A stretch of 64,000 nt of DNA from Candidatus Latescibacterota bacterium (GCA_965222605.1 OZ244960.1:6080001-6144000); one strand, 5' to 3'; shown: positions 2,608 through 56,794, counted from the stretch's first letter. Made by a program: numbers and translations. The notes: generated from the sequence alone by a model not told the origin.

Positions 2608-2819
2608 GGACAAGGCCCCCTCAACCGCCCGCAGGCCACAGCTCCAGGTAACAACACCGTTCATGCATTCTTTATAGGTCTATGCTCTCCAATCTAGTGA
2701 ATGTGAATCGGACAACGCAAGGCGAGCCTCTGTCCAATTATTTTCAGTTAAGTCCTTGTTTTATAGGTAAATATATTAAAAATATAAGGTTGTGAAAACC
2801 TTGTGATGGTTTTGGGGGA

Positions 2820-3100
2820 GCAGTACTCGAAAGGGTGTAGGGGTTCGAATCCCCTCTTCGGCACCAAAATAAAAACAAGGGCTTGTGATATGAATCGCAA
2901 GCCCTTTTTCTGTCGATAGGAGTAAAATGCCATGTGCAGGCATATCCTCGCCTTGCTATCCATCGCGCTTCTGATCCAACCACTTCGAGCCGATGTCGCA
3001 TTAGAACAGGTCCCCAATCCAGATTTTGATAATAGTGGCGTGGTTGATTTTCCCGACTTTTTGCTATTTGTCGCCAGGTTTGGGGCGCGCCAGGGCGATG
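2820..3100 (+). repeat. Direct repeat copy 2, beginning with a displaced 3' half of tRNA-Leu; attR-like
   Basis: GCAGTACTCG...GGCACCA is identical to tRNA nt 1231..1277 but lacks the 5' half; preceded by an AT-rich segment. Confidence 0.93.
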
Positions 3101-4521
3101 AAAAGTATGATGATCGTTTTGATCTGGATGGCGATGGCGAGATTGGATTTGGCGATTTTGTGAATTTTGTCGCAAACTTCGGCAAAACGATCACGCCAAA
3201 TGGGGGGGCGAATCCGACAGTGGGTGATATAAAGATTCTGGGTTCGTTATTTGTCTCATCGGTCTGGGCTGGGCATCCCGTGGGGTTTGACCTGTTGACT
3301 TATGGTGATGTACAATTTGTCGCGTTTTACGATGCCGACCGCAAAATGACGGTGGGGATGCGAAATTTAGATGGCGAAACGTGGACATTTGCACAGCCCA
3401 AAGGTGTATGGTTGGAATATCGAGGCCGCCTGTCGTCGGAAATCGGGTGGGACACTCACAATTATCTAACTATGGCCATTGACGCCGACAATCACATTCA
3501 TTTGAGCGGGAATATGCATGTGGATCCGCTGATTTACTTTCGCACAACGCGGCCACTCGATGTGACGAGTTTTGAGCGCATCGCTTCTATGGTCGGCAAA
3601 AATGAAAATCGCTGTACCTATCCCGTGTTTATGCGCGGTCCGAATAATGAATTGATTTTCCGATATCGAGACGGCAGTAGTGGCAATGCTGTTGAATTTT
3701 ACAATATCTATGATGTCGAGACCAGAACATGGCGGCGGTTGCACGATACCCCGTTATTAGACGGATTGGGTCGGATGAATGCGTACGCGCGCGGGCCTCA
3801 GAAAGGTCCCGATGGGATGTACCACATGGTCTGGATGTGGCGCGATACACCCGATGCTGCAACCAATCACAGTATCTCATATGCCCGCAGCCGCGACCTG
3901 GTCGCCTGGGAAACGGGTGGCGGCGATGCGTTGGATTTACCGATTACAATAGAAAGCGGTGCCATCGTCGATCCCGTGCCGTCGAGGGGAGGGATGATCA
4001 ATATGACGCAGTCATTGGGTTTTGACCACCAGAAACGCCCGGTGATTAGTTATCACAAGCACGATGAGAGTGGATACACGCAAGCCTATTGTGCGCGGTT
4101 GGAATACGGCGAATGGGTCGTGTACAAGGTGAGCGATTGGACCTATCGGTGGGAATTTGGAGGGGGCGGATCAATTGTCGCAGAGATTCGGTTGGGCAGC
4201 GTAAAGGTGGCATCCGATGGGGGCCTGAGTATGAGTTATGTGCATGTAAAAGAAGGACGGGGAATCTGGAGGTTGGATCCCCAAACCCTGCAAGTGATCG
4301 GAACTTATCCGCCGCCTCAGAGTACGGTACCCAGGGAATTGGGGCGGGTGACTTCTCAGTATCCGGGCATGCAGGTCAACACGCGTGGAGCGCGGGGGTC
4401 GGGCACAAGGCCCGGCGAGCGATATATCTTGCGCTGGGAAACGCTGGGTCGCAATCGGGACCTGCCCCGAGAGGAGATCCCACCGCCGAGTGATTTGAGA
4501 CTTTATATTCTCGAGAGATGA
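2932..4521 (+). CDS. Secreted protein with N-terminal paired EF-hand/dockerin-like tag and BNR-repeat (beta-propeller) domain
   Basis: Signal peptide; DFDNSGVVDFPDF and DLDGDGEIGFGDF; WDTHN..HLSGNMH, TYPVF, FRYRDGSSG, SYARSRDL..W. Confidence 0.8.
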   Translation: MCRHILALLSIALLIQPLRADVALEQVPNPDFDNSGVVDFPDFLLFVARFGARQGDEKYDDRFDLDGDGEIGFGDFVNFVANFGKTITPNGGANPTVGDIKILGSLFVSSVWAGHPVGFDLLTYGDVQFVAFYDADRKMTVGMRNLDGETWTFAQPKGVWLEYRGRLSSEIGWDTHNYLTMAIDADNHIHLSGNMHVDPLIYFRTTRPLDVTSFERIASMVGKNENRCTYPVFMRGPNNELIFRYRDGSSGNAVEFYNIYDVETRTWRRLHDTPLLDGLGRMNAYARGPQKGPDGMYHMVWMWRDTPDAATNHSISYARSRDLVAWETGGGDALDLPITIESGAIVDPVPSRGGMINMTQSLGFDHQKRPVISYHKHDESGYTQAYCARLEYGEWVVYKVSDWTYRWEFGGGGSIVAEIRLGSVKVASDGGLSMSYVHVKEGRGIWRLDPQTLQVIGTYPPPQSTVPRELGRVTSQYPGMQVNTRGARGSGTRPGERYILRWETLGRNRDLPREEIPPPSDLRLYILER

Positions 4522-9001: not shown

Positions 9002-9143
9002 CAAACGATGTATCCCAGAGTGTTGTGGCCCTTATACCACATAACCACCCCTCAAAAAAAAATCGTAACCCCCCCGGGAAAACCCAAAACCCCCACCCCT
9101 CTCCCACTTCTACACAAGAGGTAAAGATGTAAGGAGACAAGAG

Positions 9144-11154
9144 TTAAAAACGCCGGATAACTCGAAAACCGAAGCTGCCGTCCCGGAGAACGGTGGTAAA
9201 CCCGCTGCGATTCGCCGAACGCAAGTCCCCCGGTTCGCCGTACCACGAACCACCACGCAACACGCGATAACCGCAGGCCCCAGACTCCCACTCACTCCCG
9301 TCTGTAGGAGCACCCACATAGCTATCATTCCAACAATCTTCCACCCACTCCCACACATTACCGTGCATGTCGTGAACACCCCAACCATTCGCGCTGAAGC
9401 TACCCACTGGTGCCGTCTCATCATTATCCCACCGACTGCCGCAACCATCGCAATTGGAACGGTTGCGACCTATCTCGTTACCCCAGCTATACCGCGTATC
9501 CGTCCCTGCCCGTGCCACATACTCCCATTCTGACTCGCTCAGTAAACCATACCTGTGACCCGTCCTTGCTGACAACCAACGCACATAAGACTCTGCATCG
9601 TCCCAACTCACATTGATCACTGGCCGATTACCTCAACCCCAGCCTCTATCCTCAGGACGATGCCCACCGCATCCTCCTGCATTTACACATGCATCCCACT
9701 CAGAAAACGTCACTTCATACACACCCACGGCCAGAGGATACCCTATATTCACGCGATGACGAGGTCCCTCATCATCATGACGGCCATCCTCGCCACTGGA
9801 TGACCCCATCGTGAATGATCCCGACGGCACTACCACCATCTCTGGGCATTCCGCACAGTCCTTACGTCCAATAATGCTATCCAGACCCGCGCTCGCTTTC
9901 TTATGTCCAGGCTCCAATGCCAATACCGCCTGATACTTCTCCCACGCATTCGCACCAGCAGGACTCGTCAGACGATCTCGTGCAAGATCTTCCTCTGCAC
10001 CTGATAACAGCGCAGACACCCTCGCTGCGTGTTCTCCTTCCTGCGCTTTAAGACGCTGATTGGGCACATATTCATATTGATAATATGAGACACCCCCTAT
10101 CAACACTGCAAGCAGACAGGCAATCGTAGCAAATAATTTCCCTTTAGATTTTTTGGGAGATTCTGATCGGTCATCGGTGCGCTGATGCACGGGGGACATC
10201 GACTTTCTGGCGATCCTGTCGTTCCGGTGGGGGAGTGGGTGGAGGCTCTGTCGGAGGAATACTCACGCCGCTTCCTGTTTCTTCTCCCAGCGCAACACGC
10301 CATTCAGCGATACTTTGTGGACGATTCGCCTTATGTACCTGCAACGACCTATCTATCGCTGAAAGAAATTCGTCACTCGCTCGACCCGCACATTGCTCAA
10401 CCACTGGCATCAGCGCGTCTTGGACTACTCTTTCTGTCGCATCCTCCGGCACTTGACCGGTCAACGCATGGTAGCACACGGCTCCCAATGCATAGATGCC
10501 TGTCCAGGGTCCTTGATCACCTCGACTTGAATACTGCTCTATTGGCGCGTAGCCCGGTGTGATGATGGACGTAATCGAACGGCTCTTCGTACTTATCGCT
10601 TGCCGCGCTGCGCCAAAGTCCAGCAACACAGGCGAATGGTCCGCATCCCGTATGATGATATTGCCCGGCTTGATGTCCCGGTGCAAGAAATCAGCCCCAT
10701 GCACCACCTCCAAACCTTCGAGGATCGGATACAAAATGGTTTTGAGTTCTTCTTCCCTCAGTGTCCCTCTGCTTTGAAGAAACTTCGATAAGGTGTCACC
10801 CTCGGCATATTCCATCACAATATACGCCGTGCCATGTGCCTGAAAAAAATGATGCACTTTAATAATGTGGCGATGGTCAAACCGGGCTAAGGTGCGCGCT
10901 TCGTCCCAAAAGCGATCCAATCCCCACGCAAAATCCGAGGCGGCCTGGGAGGACAGCGGTACGACCGACATATCGTGATCACGAACCGCAAGACCTTCGG
11001 GCAAATACTCTTTGATTGCCACGGGAATATCCAGTGTCATATTCCAGCCGAGATAGGTAATGCCAAAGCCGCCTTGACCTAAGATGCGGTGAAATTCAAA
11101 ATCCTGTATGCGCGTGCCCTGTGGCAGTGCCAATCGGTGGTGTGATTCGTTCAT
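9144..11154 (-). pseudogene. Ser/Thr kinase-TM-helical-FGE/C-type lectin receptor, DGR target 2, disrupted
   Basis: LGQGGFG, AIKE, HRDIKP, DFG; frameshift at the G5 run 10191..10195 relative to the paralog; TM helix; [13 protein letters not shown]; in-frame TGA at 9633..9635 in GWG*GNRPV; RGGSW...GFRV at the end. Confidence 0.9.
9159..9203 (-). repeat. DGR variable region VR2 (portion alignable to the surviving TR)
   Basis: Versus TR 12360..12404: 13 mismatches at TR adenines and 1 non-A mismatch in 45 nt. Confidence 0.9.
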
Positions 11155-12170
11155 CTCGTTCCTTTCGATTGGGTTGTGGTGTCGGGGGCTGTTAATGAAT
11201 TCGCGGGGGTGTCCTCAGTCTTTTCCTTTGACGATTCCTCGCTCACTTTGCCTGTATCGGTCTGCTTTGATTGCTGAACGGGAGACCCTGTGAGCTTTTC
11301 TTTAAAGGCAGACCAAAGTCCCGACAAGCCTGTTTCTTGTTTTGATTCTTGCGTCTCTTCGCGCGGACTGGATTCCTCATCGGGAAGCATGCCCTCCCCG
11401 CAATCGGCTTCTGGGCGGTAGAGCAATACCGTGGTATTGTCCTGATTGGGCCGTCCGACCTCTTCCACAGCATGGATGAGTGCCTCGGCGACTTCTTCAA
11501 GCGGCGCGTCATGCTTGTTCTCTATAATACGCGCGATCTCTTCATCCTCAAGGGTCATTACACCATCACTGGCCAATAACAGGCGGTCGCTTTTCCGTAT
11601 CGCAATCGGTTGGGATGAGACATCTATCAGGTGAATCTCATCGCCCATGACCGCTGACCGCAGGGCATGGCGGTTGGAATCCGTCGCCGCTTCTTCCTCT
11701 GTCATGCGCCCGACCGCCACCAGGTTTGCAAGCACGGGTGCCATGGAGTGATCGGCATTGAGGCGGTGCAATTTGCCGTCGCGAAACAGCCACAAGGGAG
11801 AATCGCCCACGCTGATCCAGTCGAGTCCATGTTGTGAAATGACTGCTGCGACCACGGTTGACCCCATGCCCTTCAGTTCGGGATTTTCGTCCGTTGCTTC
11901 GGCAAGGGCGTCATTGGCTGCGGTGAGACAGGCGCGCAGACAATCCGGTATTGGCCCCTCTGTGCTGTGATAGGTCTCCACAAAGGTCTTGACCACCATT
12001 CTGCTGGCCGTATCGCCGCTGACGTGTCCCCCCATCCCATCGGCGAGCAATAACACTTCGCCTCCGTCAGTGTCGGGATCGCCGCGCTCAATCAGGCCGT
12101 AATCGTCCTCCTGATATTCACGTCCGCCGGGAATTTGTTGTGCGGCAAATCGGCCTTTTAGTCGATTCAT
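11151..12170 (-). CDS. PP2C-family Ser/Thr phosphatase
   Basis: GREYQED, LADGMGGH, MGST, SVGDS, DHS, LASDG, DNTT; stop overlaps the kinase start (ATGA). Confidence 0.93.
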   Translation of the reverse strand: MNRLKGRFAAQQIPGGREYQEDDYGLIERGDPDTDGGEVLLLADGMGGHVSGDTASRMVVKTFVETYHSTEGPIPDCLRACLTAANDALAEATDENPELKGMGSTVVAAVISQHGLDWISVGDSPLWLFRDGKLHRLNADHSMAPVLANLVAVGRMTEEEAATDSNRHALRSAVMGDEIHLIDVSSQPIAIRKSDRLLLASDGVMTLEDEEIARIIENKHDAPLEEVAEALIHAVEEVGRPNQDNTTVLLYRPEADCGEGMLPDEESSPREETQESKQETGLSGLWSAFKEKLTGSPVQQSKQTDTGKVSEESSKEKTEDTPANSLTAPDTTTQSKGTR

Positions 12171-12227
12171 GGTGTTCCTCCATAACGGCGCAAGACCGCT
12201 GCTGTTTCGTAAGCATCGTAAAATATA

Positions 12228-12270
12228 GTGGTGTCCCTTCCTCACAGGTGCGAGGCAAAAGGAACACCAC
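12228..12270 (-). other. Long hairpin downstream of the DGR template repeat
   Basis: Minus strand GTGGTGTTCCTT..CCTC..GAGG..AAGGGACACCAC. Confidence 0.55.
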
Positions 12271-12358
12271 TCCTACCTCATCATGACCGCCCCTGGACGC
12301 CCCGTTGCACTCCCGGCAACATCCTGGTGTTATCGGTTCTGGCTAACGAGCGTGCGGA

Positions 12359-12404
12359 CAACTCGAAAACCGTTATTGTTGTTCCGGTTTTCGGTGGTAT
12401 TCCT
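12359..12404 (-). repeat. DGR template repeat (TR), 3' remnant
   Basis: Minus strand AGG AAT ACC ACC GAA AAC CGG AAC AAC AAT AAC GGT TTT CGA GTT G; AAC-rich; matches both VRs except at adenines. Confidence 0.92.
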
Positions 12405-12406
12405 GT

Positions 12407-12747
12407 GTGCGGGCACAGGCGATGCGCCGCCGCAGGTCACGCTTGAGGATTTCGTGGTCAATAGCAGGGAAGTAGCGATAGAGGTCGCAGCGCAATACAT
12501 GGCGAAAACGGTCTCGGAATGTTTCGTAGCGGGCTATGGCGCGATGGGTTCCCTTGCCCTTGCGATTGGCATAGGTATCATAAATAAAGCCGCGTTCAAA
12601 AATCGGCTCGCATACCGCGCAAAAAGCGTGATGCACCACCCGATCTCGAAAGGGCGCAGCCGAGACGATGCGGTGCTTGGGGTCGAATATCTCGATCTCG
12701 GTGTATCGCCCCGGACGGTATTGACCTGTTTTGAGTTCCCGCTCTAA
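12407..12747 (-). pseudogene. DGR reverse transcriptase, internal fragment (~113 aa)
   Basis: ELKTGQYRPG.Y..I.I.DPK.R.VSAAPFRDRVVHHA, FIYDTYANRKGKGTHRA, VLRCDLYRYFPAIDHEIL; N-terminus and the YxDD-containing half are missing. Confidence 0.92.
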
Positions 12748-12913
12748 GGGATTCCAACACGTTGAGGGCAGTACTTTGTATGCGGTCGCCCAGTAGGAAC
12801 TTCTGATTGCGGGGAAATCGCTCCAGTGTAGGCACGAGCCACAGGATGAACTGGTAATGTGCCTCCAGTGCCGGCCCAGTTTGACGTGCGTTGATCCTTG
12901 ACAGATCATTCAA
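12746..12913 (-). pseudogene. avd: DGR accessory protein Avd, N-terminal half (56 aa)
   Basis: AGGAG RBS and TTG start; GPALEAHYQFILWLVPTLERFPRNQKFLLGDRIQ..ALNVLESL; joined out of frame to the RT fragment. Confidence 0.88.
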
Positions 12914-13043
12914 AAGATGGACTCCTGATAAAACACCCCTCAAAAAAAATCGTAAAACCCCCGGGAAAACCCAAAATCAACCCCCTCAAAATCCAAAACT
13001 CTCCCTCCCCCAAAAAAGAGGTAAAGAGGTAAGGATAAAAGAG

Positions 13044-14978
13044 TTAAAAACGCCGGGCAACTCGAAAACCGTAATCGTCGTACCGGTATACGGTGGGATT
13101 CCAGAAGCGATTCGCCGAACGCAAGAGCCTCGGATAGTAGTACCACGAACCACCACGCAACACGCGTCTATCGCAATTACCAGACTCCCACGCAGACCCA
13201 TCTATAGGTGCCCCCACATAGCTGTCATTCCAACAGTCTTCCACCCATTCCCACCCATTCCCGTGCATATCGTGAACACCCCAACCATTCGCCCTGAAAC
13301 TTCCCACAGATACGGTATTCCCTCTATACACACCTTTCCGACCAGTACCGTAGGTATAATTACCATTGTAATTCGCTTGATCCGTCGATATTGTTGTACC
13401 AAAATGAAAGGGCGTCTCCGTACCCGCTCGCGCCACATACTCCCATTCCGATTCACTCAGTAAACCATACCGGTGACCTGTCTTTTGAGATAACCAACGC
13501 ACATAAGACTGTGCATCGTCCCAACTCATGCACACCACAGGATGGCTATCCGCCTGAGAATAATTAGGATTACGCCAACTTATCCCTCTTCGATTCTCCC
13601 ATTTAATGGAGGAACTATTCCAAACATAACAAGAATTTCCCGCATTGTACCCCGTATCTGACACAAAACTGGAAAACTCTCTTCGCGTCACTTCATACAC
13701 ACCCACGGCCAGAGGATACCCTATATTCACGCGATGACGAGGGCCCTCATCGTCATAACGATCTTCCTCGCTACTGGGAGAACCCATCGTGAACGATCCC
13801 GACGGCACTACCACCATCTCTGGGCATTCCGCACAGTCCTTGAATTTCCTGCCTGCGCGATGAAGCTCTGCCTCGCGCGCTGCTGACAACCGATCTTCCA
13901 GTTCCGATTGGTAATAATAGACACCCCCTATCAGCACGGTAAGCAGGCAGGCTACTGTTGCAATTAATTTCCCTTTAGGTTTCTTGGAAGATTCTGAGCG
14001 GTCATCGGTGCGCTGATGCACGGAGGGAACAGCGACTTCCTCTCGATCCTGTTTTTTTGATGGGGGAGTGGTTGGAGGCTTTCTCGGGCCGCTTCCTGTT
14101 TCTTCTCCCAGCGCAACACGCCATTCAGCGATACTTTGCGGACGATTCTCCTTATGCACCTGCAACGCCCAATCTATTGCCGATAGAAATTCGACACGCG
14201 CTTGACCCGCGCATTGCTCAGACGCTGGAATGAGCGGATCAAGGGCTACTCTGTCTGGTGCCTCATCAGGACCCTCACCGGCCAAGGCGCGATAGCACAC
14301 CGCACCCAATGCATAAATGTCTGTACCCGGTCCTTGTTCTCCCCGACTCGAATACTGCTCTATTGGCGAGTAAGGTGGTGAGATAATCGCATCAATAGAC
14401 TGGCTCCTAATACCGATCGCCTGACGCGCTGCGCCAAAGTCCAACAGCACAGGCGAATTGTCCGCATCCCGTATGATGATGTTGAGAGGCTTGATGTCAC
14501 GGTGCAAGAAATCAACCCCATGCACCTCCTCCAAACCATCCAGTATCGGATACAAAATGGCTTTGAGTTCGGCTTCACTCAGCGGCCCTCTGCTTTGCAG
14601 AAACTTCGATAAGGTCTCGCCCTCGGCATATTCCATCACGATATACGCCGTGCCATGGGTTTGAAAAAAGCGATGCACTTTAATGATGTGGCGATGATCG
14701 AACCGGGCTAAGGTGCGCGCTTCGTCCAAAAAACGATCCAATCCCCACTCAAAATCATCTCGAAACTGACTCGCTTGTGGAGCTACGCTGTTGTCGCCTG
14801 TGCGCGTGGCTATATCCGATGGCAGGTATTCCTTAATCGCAACGGCTTTGTCCAGGTTGTGGTCAAAGCCGAGGTAGGTCATGCCGAAGCCGCCAAATCC
14901 GAGCACGCGCACCAGTTCGTATTCCTGGAGCCGATGCCCCTGGGGCAGGGCATTGAGGGGGTGGTGTGCGTCGTTCAT
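13044..14978 (-). CDS. Ser/Thr kinase-TM-FGE/C-type lectin receptor, DGR target 1, intact ORF
   Basis: LGFGGFG, AIKE, HRDIKP, DFG, DIYALG; TM LIATVACLLTVLIGGVYYY; [59 protein letters not shown]. Confidence 0.95.
   Translation of the reverse strand: MNDAHHPLNALPQGHRLQEYELVRVLGFGGFGMTYLGFDHNLDKAVAIKEYLPSDIATRTGDNSVAPQASQFRDDFEWGLDRFLDEARTLARFDHRHIIKVHRFFQTHGTAYIVMEYAEGETLSKFLQSRGPLSEAELKAILYPILDGLEEVHGVDFLHRDIKPLNIIIRDADNSPVLLDFGAARQAIGIRSQSIDAIISPPYSPIEQYSSRGEQGPGTDIYALGAVCYRALAGEGPDEAPDRVALDPLIPASEQCAGQARVEFLSAIDWALQVHKENRPQSIAEWRVALGEETGSGPRKPPTTPPSKKQDREEVAVPSVHQRTDDRSESSKKPKGKLIATVACLLTVLIGGVYYYQSELEDRLSAAREAELHRAGRKFKDCAECPEMVVVPSGSFTMGSPSSEEDRYDDEGPRHRVNIGYPLAVGVYEVTRREFSSFVSDTGYNAGNSCYVWNSSSIKWENRRGISWRNPNYSQADSHPVVCMSWDDAQSYVRWLSQKTGHRYGLLSESEWEYVARAGTETPFHFGTTISTDQANYNGNYTYGTGRKGVYRGNTVSVGSFRANGWGVHDMHGNGWEWVEDCWNDSYVGAPIDGSAWESGNCDRRVLRGGSWYYYPRLLRSANRFWNPTVYRYDDYGFRVARRF
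13058..13103 (-). repeat. DGR variable region VR1 (portion alignable to the surviving TR)
   Basis: Versus TR 12359..12404: 8 mismatches in 46 nt, all at TR adenines. Confidence 0.92.
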
Positions 14979-36800: not shown

Positions 36801-37589
36801 GATAAAGATTTTCGCAGTGAGGTACTTTTTAATTTTGATGGCGCAGTGCATATTGTTGAACGCGATGAACCGCCGGTTGCAGTAGGGTCGCCGCAGATTA
36901 TACGCGCGCGTCCCCTGGGACCAACCCGCGTTGAAATCGACTGGATGCAAGTGCCCGATGCATCTTCTTACCAGATTTATCGCGCTGTTGGCGATGGTGC
37001 GCTCGATTATTTCGATGAGATAAGCGACCGCACGGTGTATATCGATTCTTTGCTAACTGAAGGACAGACCTATCGCTACCAGATTGTCGCCGTGGCAGAT
37101 TGGGACCTGCGATCGGGTATTGTCTCTCTCACGCCAAACCGTGCGCCAGAAGTCGTGCGTGTTGAAACGTTGTCGGACAACCAGATTCAAATTTTCTTTT
37201 CAGAGGAGATGGGATCAGATGCGGCACTGCCATCGAGTTATCTGCTCGGCGGTGTTGGACAACCGACATCTGTGGTTCTCGATCAACAAAATACCCGAGC
37301 GGTTCTGTCCTTTGCCGTGCCTTTCCCAGCTCGCTATACACTGACTATTCTCAATGTATCCGATGCGAGCGGTACACCTCTTGGACTGACAACTATTGCA
37401 GATACTGTTGACCTAGACCTTCTTGCGCGAGCCGATGCCGATGGCAGTGGCGTTGTCGATTTTGCGGATTTTTTGGCTTTTGTCCACGCATTTCAAACTT
37501 CCGATTCCACATTCGATTTTGACGGCGATGGTATCGTCAATTTCCCCGACTTTCTCATCTTTGCCAACCTCTTTGGTCGAGCAGTATGA
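33843..37589 (+). CDS. Large secreted S8 subtilase with FG-GAP-like, FN3, Ig-like and EF-hand/dockerin-like domains (start uncertain)
   Basis: IIDSG, HGT.VAG, ASAGN, GTSFSAP; repeated DxDxDG motifs; C-terminal DADGSGVVDFADF / DFDGDGIVNFPDF. Confidence 0.9.
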   Translation: MVHTKTQRHKERRGLGAGGWELRWGYALAVVICGFFSQIAHAQPAYSPGQILVKFRSAGRGKTAVAVHPALAQFRDLSERYGVTAIEPLFTPRSAKAVYPHPLSQVYRVRLSGDPIEAAADYALRPDVVYAQPNYLFTHQQVPNDPRYSDQHNLQILDWEILQQNLGPIREQIIVAIIDSGVDYNHEDLRDNIWHNAAEVGGSSGVDDDGNGYIDDIRGWDFTHAPDLPGMGDYLMRDNDPQDESSHGTRVAGIVAAATNNNRGIAGIAPNAQIMALRAGLRRLGGIGFLEEDDIAAAILYAVENGAHVINMSFGGPERTFILGDVIQYAHAQGVVLVASAGNSGDELEYPAGNHYTIAVGAVNSSDRLAGFSSTGASLDLVAPGVNILSIRLNNRYASGSGTSFSAPHISGLVALIFSRRPDLPPHSVRNLLIASAIDLGSPGHDNEYGAGRVSGTELANRLSTFDSLTVAIHTPNNDQGEDTAFDIRASVAGAQVTGYRLSYGLGHNPHTWTRLAEGLPSLDIRYTWDVSAFTNSDVVLRLEADLSDGAVVEDRVRVAIQKRAPSITALACGDVLVGDRRVFECRWRTDQRAHGGIAYRYGADFDTLYTGLVQNKHRVVLPHTLPAGVVTFHVLADGENNIRAVHPAQTIDYVPFRVPQNGFTEMGTLPDGFLPDRASDFDRDGRLEIALMPYVSGSYGPVHIYERQTDGTFADEFQSDERFLPWAIGDITNDGTDDLLGVTYERLVLFTDSFSNPYPAQVEFEQRDTWGGDFADVDGDSIPDIIARSGGQRGIRVIRNLGSVIREEAFLADPSQGTGDLGPRFVVADFDRDEQREILAGDADGDLWIYEYRAGKYVQTWSLPGDGDARWIGGGVDLDDDGLVEFAVARAYTDAYEASNGFWELEIYSMRAPDTYAREWTTRINGVATTGNGISAGDVDGDGLADLLLCLRPDLYAFRAEEPDHYRPIWHTPVGLMRRALIADLDKDFRSEVLFNFDGAVHIVERDEPPVAVGSPQIIRARPLGPTRVEIDWMQVPDASSYQIYRAVGDGALDYFDEISDRTVYIDSLLTEGQTYRYQIVAVADWDLRSGIVSLTPNRAPEVVRVETLSDNQIQIFFSEEMGSDAALPSSYLLGGVGQPTSVVLDQQNTRAVLSFAVPFPARYTLTILNVSDASGTPLGLTTIADTVDLDLLARADADGSGVVDFADFLAFVHAFQTSDSTFDFDGDGIVNFPDFLIFANLFGRAV

Positions 37590-55177: not shown

Positions 55178-56794
55178 ATGGGGAGGTTTGCTGTTTTGTT
55201 GGCAATTGTTTTGTTGGTGGGCGGATCTGTGCATGCACAAGTTCCGCCCATTTTTGCGCCCGGAACTGAACTTCACGATATTTACTGCCGCGCATGTGCC
55301 CATTTTTTTCCCGAGGTTCTGCCTGTTGACAGCGAGTTTCGGCTGGATAGAGCTATTTGTGGGACATCGGCGATAAGGGGATTGACCGCGAATTGGGATC
55401 GTTTGCCTCCCGCGGCAAAAGAGGCGTTTGCGTTTCTCCAGCAGCGTCCCATCCTGAGTCATTCGATTCTGTCTTCGGGTGGTCGTTTCAAAATTCACTA
55501 CAATACCACGGGGACTCACGCCGTTGCTCCAACCGATACAGATGCCAATGGCGTGCCCGATTATGTCGATGAATCCGCGCGCGTTTTTGAGGCGATTTGG
55601 GATCTGGAGATCAATCAGTTGGGCTACCATCCCCCTCTGTCCGATGGCGATGGTGTTTACGATATTTATATTAAAAATCTCGCCCTTCAGTCAGCTTATG
55701 GCTTTACATATCCGATTGTATATACGGAACTGACGACGCCGAGTTATATGGAGATTGACAATAATTTTACGGATAATATTTACCCTCTAAATTCACGCGG
55801 ATTCAATGGATTGCGCGTGACGGCTGCACACGAATTTTTTCACGCGATTCAATTTGGGTATTATGCCGACTTTGGCGCTGCGTGGTGGCAAGAACTCACG
55901 GCGACCTGGATGGAGGATGTGGCCTATCCCAGTGTGAATGATTTTTATCAGTACATGAGTTGCCCGCGCAATTTTTCGTGTATTTACGACGATCCCGAGG
56001 CGTCATTGGACAAATTTTCTGGTAGTCTTCATCCTTTTGGCGCTGCGGTTTTTGCCCATCACGTCGAGCAGGTTTACGGTGCGGATGTGATCAAAAGCGT
56101 TTGGGAGTTGCTCAAAAGACGCGATCCGAGCAGATATAGTTTGTCGCTTATTGATGATGGGATGCCCTTGGGCGGATTTGCCCAGGTGATGCCGCGGTTT
56201 GCCGCGTGGAATTATTTAACTGATGTGCGTGCCCGCCCCGGATATTATGTTGAAGCGCGCGATTTGCCCTCTATAAAGCATGCCGATATTGGCCTCGGTA
56301 CAGGTGGCTTTTTTGAAGGGTCTGAAACGGTTGATCATTTGGGGACTACATATTTGCGCGTATCTACTTCGAATATTGCTGGCGGGCTTCGGGGAACATT
56401 TGCACTGGACAATCAGGGGCGGTGGACTTTGCTGGTTATGCTGATCTCTCCGTCTGGCGTCGAGCTATTGTATCCACGCGGGACAACGGTGGTGATTCCA
56501 AGAGCCAATCGTTTTGACGAGGTTGTATTTATTGTGATGGAAACATCGCTTTCGGGTGAAAGGCGGCGCGTGAATTACACGCTGTCAACTGGCGGAAGTA
56601 CGGCGACGGATATCGTGGGCGATGTCGATGGCGATGGGCGCGTTGCATTTTCCGATTTTCTGAAATTTGCGGATGGTTTTAAACTCTTGCATACGGATAA
56701 TAAGTACAATCCAAAATTGGATTTCAATGGGGATGGACCTGTTGATTTTCGTGATTTTCTCATTTTTGTTTCCCATTTTGGTGAATCGCGTTAG
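55178..56794 (+). CDS. Secreted zinc metalloprotease (HExxH) with C-terminal EF-hand/dockerin-like tag
   Basis: Signal peptide; CGT; F.IHY; TAAHEFFHAIQFGY..W.E.TATWME; DVDGDGRVAFSDF / DFNGDGPVDFRDF. Confidence 0.87.
   Translation: MGRFAVLLAIVLLVGGSVHAQVPPIFAPGTELHDIYCRACAHFFPEVLPVDSEFRLDRAICGTSAIRGLTANWDRLPPAAKEAFAFLQQRPILSHSILSSGGRFKIHYNTTGTHAVAPTDTDANGVPDYVDESARVFEAIWDLEINQLGYHPPLSDGDGVYDIYIKNLALQSAYGFTYPIVYTELTTPSYMEIDNNFTDNIYPLNSRGFNGLRVTAAHEFFHAIQFGYYADFGAAWWQELTATWMEDVAYPSVNDFYQYMSCPRNFSCIYDDPEASLDKFSGSLHPFGAAVFAHHVEQVYGADVIKSVWELLKRRDPSRYSLSLIDDGMPLGGFAQVMPRFAAWNYLTDVRARPGYYVEARDLPSIKHADIGLGTGGFFEGSETVDHLGTTYLRVSTSNIAGGLRGTFALDNQGRWTLLVMLISPSGVELLYPRGTTVVIPRANRFDEVVFIVMETSLSGERRRVNYTLSTGGSTATDIVGDVDGDGRVAFSDFLKFADGFKLLHTDNKYNPKLDFNGDGPVDFRDFLIFVSHFGESR

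Follow-up and report, generated by a model that had tools for sequence, protein, structure and literature searches.

Remains of a diversity-generating retroelement and its probable second target in a Candidatus Latescibacterota genome

Diversity-generating retroelements (DGRs) in which one cassette serves several genes have been described before. In the available passages of Wu et al. (Nucleic Acids Res 2018; PMC5758913), about 15 % of DGRs are multi-target, with up to eight targets in tandem; one target type carries a kinase domain, and the 5′ boundaries may differ between targets. For the DGR of Bordetella phage BPP-1, the same passages give target recognition by the initiation of mutagenic homing (IMH) sequence together with a downstream GC-rich inverted repeat. 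Dore et al. (PNAS 2024; PMC10907252), in the portions of the article at hand, report DGR loci with missing or pseudogenised machinery in Thiohalocapsa PB-PSB1. Multi-target DGRs, kinase–lectin targets and degenerate DGR loci are all previously published. The locus described here lies in a 64,000-nt stretch of DNA, referred to as the window (positions 6,080,001–6,144,000 of a single 6,338,376-bp contig), from a Candidatus Latescibacterota bacterium (GCA_965222605.1, OZ244960.1). Coordinates are positions in the window unless the genome is named, and every relevant feature is on the minus strand. Two serine/threonine kinase genes, target 1 and target 2, each end in a variable region (VR1 and VR2), and the fragments of a DGR cassette lie between them. 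VR2 and its 3′ flank are read here as the end of a second target of this DGR, now wrecked, and the locus as a fossil of a known system; the probability of this reading is put at roughly 0.85.

The evidence rests first on the surviving part of the template repeat (TR). In an ungapped comparison with the 45 nt of the TR remnant (18 adenines and 27 other bases; Fisher test), VR2 (9159–9203, against 12360–12404 of the TR) is mismatched at 13 of the 18 adenines and at 1 of the 27 other sites (p = 1.4e-6). The lone non-A mismatch is a T>C change in a codon that reads AAT in the TR and AGC in VR2. A preliminary description of this DNA, made from the sequence alone, had proposed VR2 as a second DGR target with a VR of its own, and its count of 13 adenine mismatches plus one T>C was exact. 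VR1 (13059–13103) likewise differs from the TR remnant at 8/18 adenines and at 0/27 other sites (p = 2e-4). Third-position drift, which the preliminary description had set against its own proposal, is not seen, as the differences between VR1 and VR2 fall 13:11:6 on codon positions 1:2:3. The homology between VR and TR stops at ...GTTGYCCG; in the codon after GTT, beyond the 45-nt string, GTC of the TR is ATC in VR2 (a second non-A difference) and GCC in VR1. A repeat finder returned a three-copy family at 9154–9202, 12355–12403 and 13054–13102. VR2 is confirmed as a true variable region, written by a DGR.

The lost part of the TR could be compared through intact relatives. A search with the fragment of the reverse transcriptase (RT) across 61 related genomes found an intact RT in G016, a genome of the same genus (93 % identity, open frame of 387 aa), and a second in G048, of the same order (83 % identity). 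Over the 60 nt of lost TR, VR1 and VR2 differ at seven sites, all seven of which are adenines in the TRs of both G016 and G048. Read from the printed alignment with the G016 TR, these differences occupy seven of the 13 adenine sites and none of the 47 others; a scripted count over 75 nt, 15 nt of which lie outside the TR, gives 9/16 A sites against 6/59 non-A sites (p = 2.5e-4). That VR1 and VR2 would differ at template adenines upstream of the surviving TR had been predicted, and five codons of the lost TR (AAC AAA CCG AGG AAC) had been proposed from the two VRs. The intact G048 TR has exactly these five codons.

The intact G016 locus (L011) comprises three tandem kinase–FGE-sulfatase targets, avd (132 aa; Pfam bAvd, E = 2.2e-18), RT (375 aa) and a TR of 118 nt directly downstream of RT. 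Two further kinase–FGE targets lie downstream, so that one cassette has at least five targets, on both sides of it. The earlier suggestion that one DGR served paralogous receptors is thereby matched within the genus. Additionally, the same 3′ flank is present at 4/4 of the G016 target ends inside the retrieved DNA.

The cassette of the window is dead, as avd, RT and TR are all truncated. Compared with the intact G016 cassette it consists of four colinear blocks with gaps of 331 and 657 bp. The 331-bp deletion removed the 3′ part of avd and RT codons 1–62; the 657-bp deletion removed RT codons 177–375 together with the initial ~60 nt of the TR, and what is left of RT now runs directly into the last ~45–50 nt of the 118-nt repeat. 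Neighbouring blocks share 2 and 7 nt at their ends, a hint of microhomology at the deletions. The RT segment that holds YVDD in the G016 protein is deleted, and the RT remnant has no Pfam match. In the genome (98.68 % complete, 5.41 % contamination) a PF00078 scan of the single contig for any other RT gave 0 matches at E <= 0.01, a negative that is meaningful because the same model (RVT_1) does recognise the intact G016 RT (E = 8.6e-17). Searching the whole genome by tblastn with the intact 375-aa RT recovered residues 63–176 only, the next-best match having E = 1.9, so that the hunt for an intact RT elsewhere in the genome, which the preliminary description had recommended, ended without one. 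With Avd as the query, tblastn matched residues 14–68 at the window locus and two shorter remnants elsewhere in the genome. As the engine is lost and the genome has no other RT, VR1 and VR2 are most probably frozen.

Decay of the cassette is recurrent in the genus. G008 (L013) keeps an intact avd, but its RT breaks off after some 110 residues; L042 matches RT residues 227–346 only, and G017 matches the TR and the region after it, with no match to the RT fragment. Among the 20 other species genomes of the genus, the search with the RT remnant found a close and intact RT in one (G016) and a remnant in another (G008); matches in G015 were all weak and fell on a longer, different RT. The DNA of the locus was matched in 21/21 genomes of the genus (that of the window included), mostly in the kinase, PP2C and FGE-domain parts, and no genome in this same-genus DNA search was closer than about 84 % over the locus. 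The loci retrieved contained just two further gene tails.

From 5′ to 3′ on the minus strand, the locus contains an FHA gene, target 1 and its flank, the avd, RT and TR fragments (12913–12355), the post-TR region, a PP2C gene, target 2 and a second flank (Table 1). Target 1 matches Pfam Pkinase (E = 2.2e-34) and FGE-sulfatase (E = 6.4e-60) and has one transmembrane (hydrophobic) segment. The C-terminal fragment of target 2 matches PF03781 (E = 1.5e-39), and in both targets the FGE match reaches the last residues; the VRs lie at the C-terminal end of a predicted C-type-lectin-fold (FGE-sulfatase) domain. The stop codon of the PP2C gene overlaps the start of target 2, and a PP2C gene also follows the TR in G048.

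Table 1. Features of the DGR locus, in window coordinates
Feature	Position	Strand	Basis or remark
FHA-domain gene	15718–15014	−	upstream of target 1
Target 1, intact 644-aa Ser/Thr kinase with C-terminal FGE-sulfatase domain	13044–14978	−	open reading frame (ORF) and Pfam
VR1	13059–13166	−	alignment; extent given by homology to the intact TR of relatives
3′ flank of target 1 (113 nt)	12931–13043	−	heptamers, then G-rich block and T run
Heptamers of flank 1 (TTACCTC)	13032–13026 and 13024–13018	−	motif
avd remnant, N-terminal half only, start uncertain	12747–12913	−	matches residues 14–68 of the 132-aa G016 Avd
RT remnant, residues 63–176 of 375	12406–12748	−	93–94 % identity to G016 RT
TR remnant, 3′ part	12360–12412	−	45 nt at 12360–12404 plus deletion junction 12405–12412
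Conserved post-TR region	12226–12359	−	81–84 % identity to G016
PP2C-type phosphatase gene	11151–12245	−	Pfam PP2C_2, E = 2e-13
Target 2, kinase–transmembrane–FGE-sulfatase paralogue, broken	9144–11154	−	three ORFs: 11154–10171, 10199–9633, 9620–9144
Target 2 frameshift, run of 5 C	10191–10195	−	comparison with related population
Target 2 in-frame TGA	9633–9635	−	Arg in paralogues
VR2	9159–9266	−	TR alignment
3′ flank of target 2	9043–9143	−	heptamers, then G-rich block and T run
Heptamers of flank 2	TTACATC 9132–9126, TTACCTC 9124–9118	−	motif

The neighbourhood of the targets in the window is one of Ser/Thr signalling, with the FHA protein upstream and PP2C downstream. In the intact relative (L014 9506–12601) there are two trypsin-like protease proteins whose C-terminal regions look FHA-like by eye. 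Elsewhere in the window, a 292-nt direct repeat (95 % identity) is present at 1220–1511 and 2809–3100, and a six-copy 49-nt family at 1433–1481, 3022–3070, 3121–3169, 37434–37482, 56621–56669 and 56720–56768. The 49-nt family appears to encode Asp/Gly-rich repeats which, as a guess from the DNA, may be calcium-binding or dockerin-like.

Target 2 carries two lesions, the frameshift and a TGA that stands where paralogues have the Arg of GWGRGNRPV. Population evidence on these comes from Logan contigs, not raw reads, and concerns differing places among the 40 of 376 that were listed. Run X1 reproduces both lesions and the RT/TR junction without difference (insertion 0/36.5; G at 9635 0/28.7); it may be the source sample, and its agreement is not independent. 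In X7, from another study, ‘GG’ is inserted behind 10190 and the frame is restored (depth 26.5/26.5), and G replaces A at plus-strand position 9635, giving CGA (depth 25.4/25.4). As both lesions are missing in X7, the lesions of target 2 are young and strain-specific. X9 has single-base insertions at 10192 and 10195, and in X3 the G at 9635 is present in 2/5.7. Two points pull the other way: X3 lacks the insertion at 10190 (0/79.2), and the insertions in X9 are seen at a depth of only 2. An X9 contig is colinear without gaps over 11377–13300 and thus shares the deletions in the cassette, which makes these older than that divergence.

Both targets are followed by a conserved flank. Between 9043–9143 and 12931–13043, 87 of 100 ungapped columns are identical, with 14 gap columns (blastn, 76.9 % over 117 columns), and both copies hold CTCTT/ACCTCTT units, a G3T4C3G5 block, and TTACGA followed by a run of 8–9 T; the conservation of about 100 bp after each stop, with these units, had been pointed out from the start. 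Targets 1 and 2 themselves are at a synonymous p-distance of 0.41–0.55 (dS, the synonymous divergence, 0.6–1.0), highest in the C-terminal part beside the flank, and their third-position identity is 64–68 % as against 74–77 % overall. The flank is thus kept far better than neutral sites (binomial p about 1e-9 against an expectation of 59 %). A third copy of the flank stands behind a VR-like tail at genome 5844440–5844552. Of the at least eight VR-like tails in the genome, four (W1, W2, C1 and C2) have, counted from the stop codon, a TTAYNTC heptamer at +11 and another at +19, together with the T run and G-rich block; 1/8 has one heptamer before a deletion into avd, and 3/8 have none.

The G-rich block (window 9075–9110; genome 5844470–5844510) has at least four G3+ tracts with short loops and, by eye, is quadruplex-prone on the coding strand. 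A G-quadruplex was rejected as a general feature of the flank, being present in W2 and C2 and nearly so in one L042 flank, while W1, C1 and the G016 flanks are without it (by eye).

The wider family shows where the heptamers occur. It was found in 38 loci, from metagenome-assembled genomes titled Binatia, Dehalococcoidia, Alphaproteobacteria, Nitrospira, Acidobacteriota, Pseudomonadales and others. In L015–L041 the RT is 67–79 % identical by best segment (one truncated match, 86 %), and the TRs of the family are 80–88 % identical in nucleotides to the G016 TR, which suggests that the entire cassette has spread horizontally between phyla. In 30 related loci, with 46 distinct VR-type ends and 22 TR-type ends, a heptamer pair (two or more motifs within 70 nt) was counted at 28/46 VR-type ends and at 0/22 TR-type ends. 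Perfect stems of at least 7 bp are present at 27/46 VR-type ends, and at 6/22 TR-type ends, at other positions. For 38 VR ends from outside the genus the consensus is TGA, the heptamer pair (at 60–80 % consensus or more), a run of G, and then a GC hairpin whose loop varies and whose arms co-vary. In the genus of the window (window, L014, L042 and L043), the heptamers are kept and the hairpin is lost, with stems of 2–6 bp; a G-tract block may have replaced it. Several VRs of the intact relative depart from its TR almost only at adenines; homing therefore apparently still occurs in the genus without the GC hairpin.

We infer that the flank may be a target-side homing signal, as its sequence conservation and its restriction to VR ends would fit. 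A more specific proposal, that the targets of this horizontally spread family (gene order avd–RT–TR) are marked by a sequence-specific tag, namely the two TTACCTC heptamers directly after the VR, and not by a cruciform alone, is offered very tentatively and is rather to be doubted. If true, the heptamer tag would be a portable address with which one element serves many dispersed receptor genes, and selection for it would have left its trace in the heptamers that both window flanks retain. Several points weigh against a homing role. The 9–11-bp GC hairpin that follows VRs outside the genus is missing in the window flanks. Folding, which had been proposed as a check on the flank, gave nothing beyond shuffled sequence for either window copy, as DNA (z = −0.40 and +0.30) or as RNA (z = −0.41 and +0.23); three G016 flanks also folded no better than shuffles, and a hairpin or cruciform was dropped for the genus of the window. 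The heptamer pattern was defined after the sequences had been seen, and the pair is missing at 18/46 VR-type ends. Lastly, conservation of the flank could stem from a terminator or another regulatory role. The candidate retrohoming signal of the preliminary description thus keeps its conservation and its position after VRs, loses the fold, and is best worded as a candidate still.

That the flank is a transcription terminator or a translational control element of the target operon, with no part in retrohoming, is unlikely, yet it is the alternative that has to be taken most seriously. The GC hairpin of relatives runs into a T-rich stretch, as in an intrinsic terminator, an arrangement that suits this role equally well, and both window flanks keep their T run; moreover, a gene tail in G003 keeps both heptamers, though G003 has no match to the RT-remnant query. 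Set against this is the distribution, since the heptamer pair and hairpin follow VR-type and not TR-type ends (0/22), and the available passages of PMC5758913 have an inverted repeat downstream of the VR enhancing homing in the Bordetella phage DGR. The flank may have had both roles, as the one does not exclude the other.

The region after the TR is conserved in its own right. About 130 nt are retained, with 81 % identity to G016 over 137 nt (L014 9235–9371), parts of them are found in most related loci, and a GAGCGTCCAGGG...GGTCATGATGA block follows every TR-type end. With the TR here lying after RT, the post-TR region is, judging by its conservation, likely to be an RNA element for cDNA priming.

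It is improbable, though not negligible, that VR2 was written by a different DGR copy and that target 2 merely lies near this cassette. The genome offers candidates. Searching it for further genes ending like GFRV.RRF, as had been recommended, found six FGE-sulfatase genes or fragments that end in GFRV[AV]RSF and have VR-like tails (genome 2697800–2698823, 5842773–5845081 and 1442796–1445957); at none of the six was an RT or TR found. Two avd remnants outside the window, one of which forms a single reading frame with an FGE tail, bring the total in the genome to three, and those at 2698662–2698823 and 5844605–5844733, or a fully vanished cassette, could mark such a source. VR2 departs from the local TR at one or two sites that are not adenines, the duplication of the targets is old by their dS, and, as the TRs of the family are so alike, any would fit: the adenine pattern cannot separate the local TR from another, lost copy, which weighs against the preferred assignment. 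In favour of the local cassette, neither target has any close kinase paralogue in the genome but the other (72 % identity in the kinase domain against ~29 % for the next), and the single intact cassette of G016 lies between targets.

The T>C site also bears on this. C stands there in the TRs of G016 and G048 and in four of the six other VR-like tails of the genome (B, C1, C2 and D1), and VR1 has T, as does the TR of the window. The mismatch had been thought to record either an older TR or one acting in trans; an ancestral C explains it under the first, which fits, and the second is kept as a rival. On the simplest account, the local TR would have mutated from C to T after the last rewriting of VR2 and before that of VR1. 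The codon after GTT is in mild conflict with this order, as VR2 (ATC) shares the T with the TR (GTC) and VR1 (GCC) does not; this GYC codon probably lies outside the transferred segment.

Continued activity, with a plasmid or phage outside the assembly providing RT and TR in trans and the VRs still diversifying, is very improbable. The assembly is the chromosome only (1 contig), and an RT on an unassembled plasmid or phage would lie beyond the genome search; the available passages on Thiohalocapsa (PMC10907252) give a precedent, with degenerate loci beside one complete locus of the same class. One X3 contig (depth 17.6/37.9) differs inside VR1 at 13086–13090 and joins to 9240, which is at odds with a frozen VR1 and may represent another paralogue or a VR variant. 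Another X3 contig, over 13044–13300 with VR1 and its surroundings, has one base different, as expected for a frozen VR1, and neither the absence of RT from the genome nor the decay of target 2 agrees with an active system. Ordinary paralogue divergence without any DGR, for which the age of the paralogues and nothing else speaks, can be set aside, given the concentration of mismatches on TR adenines and a codon-position spread that is opposite to the third-position bias in the rest of the genes.

For homing, for the order of events and for the topology and role of the receptors, we infer the following history under the preferred reading of target 2 as a second target of this DGR. The ancestral order on the minus strand would have been one or more kinase–FGE targets, avd, RT, TR, PP2C and a further kinase–FGE target. 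RT with Avd would have copied TR RNA into cDNA, misreading adenines, and the cDNA would have replaced the last ~108 nt of coding sequence in targets ending ...GGTTTTCGAGTTGYCCGG with the shared flank, re-shaping the ligand pocket of a presumed extracytoplasmic lectin-fold domain of membrane Ser/Thr kinases. The PP2C phosphatase and the FHA protein encoded next to them may be partners of these receptor kinases. VR2 would have been last rewritten from the older TR, with C, and VR1 after the change to T. The two deletions, which took the 3′ half of avd, RT residues 1–62 and 177–375 and the 5′ half of the TR, would then have frozen the VRs, and target 2 would afterwards have gained its frameshift and nonsense codon in this strain. 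The flank, with two TTACCTC heptamers here and a GC hairpin as well in most relatives, may have been kept for a target-side signal, and perhaps also as a terminator.

As a system, the locus adds little to what has been published. Its value is that of a dated fossil of DGR loss, in which the DGR is being lost while receptor-kinase targets persist with frozen VRs, and in which a single point mutation of the TR would order the last rewriting of both targets. The heptamer pair after VRs, found across phyla, is a testable candidate for target addressing; we know of no bench study of the DGR class that carries it.

Compared with the multi-target DGRs in the available passages of PMC5758913, the arrangement is alike in that one cassette has several VR-bearing targets, at least five in the relative and two in the window. 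It is unlike them in that the cassette is destroyed, one target is a pseudogene, and one target lies downstream of the TR, behind PP2C. As in BPP-1, in the account of the same source, VR–TR homology ends at a short GC-rich stretch, and most relatives in the family have a 9–11-bp GC hairpin after the VR and not after the TR; the window and its genus, unlike BPP-1, are without the hairpin and keep the TTACCTC heptamer pair and G-rich block instead. The passages of PMC5758913 and PMC10907252 at hand contain no description of these heptamers, and no literature search specific to the motif was made. DGRs in sponge symbionts were likewise not found in a literature search judged by title and the start of the abstract.

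A further likeness is to Thiohalocapsa PB-PSB1, as far as the portions of PMC10907252 at hand describe it. There, too, signalling domains (including Pkinase) are combined with a C-terminal FGE/CLec domain, several targets belong to one locus, and a trypsin-like peptidase gene lies nearby, as in G016. Each class in Thiohalocapsa keeps one complete locus that could act in trans, whereas here neither a complete locus nor an RT is found in the genome. Within the present genome, the array at 5844599–5845081, ~235 kb upstream, has the same family of VR tails and an avd remnant. It is without RT or TR, whereas the window locus keeps fragments of both, and it is for this reason that the TR could be tested against the VRs at the window locus.

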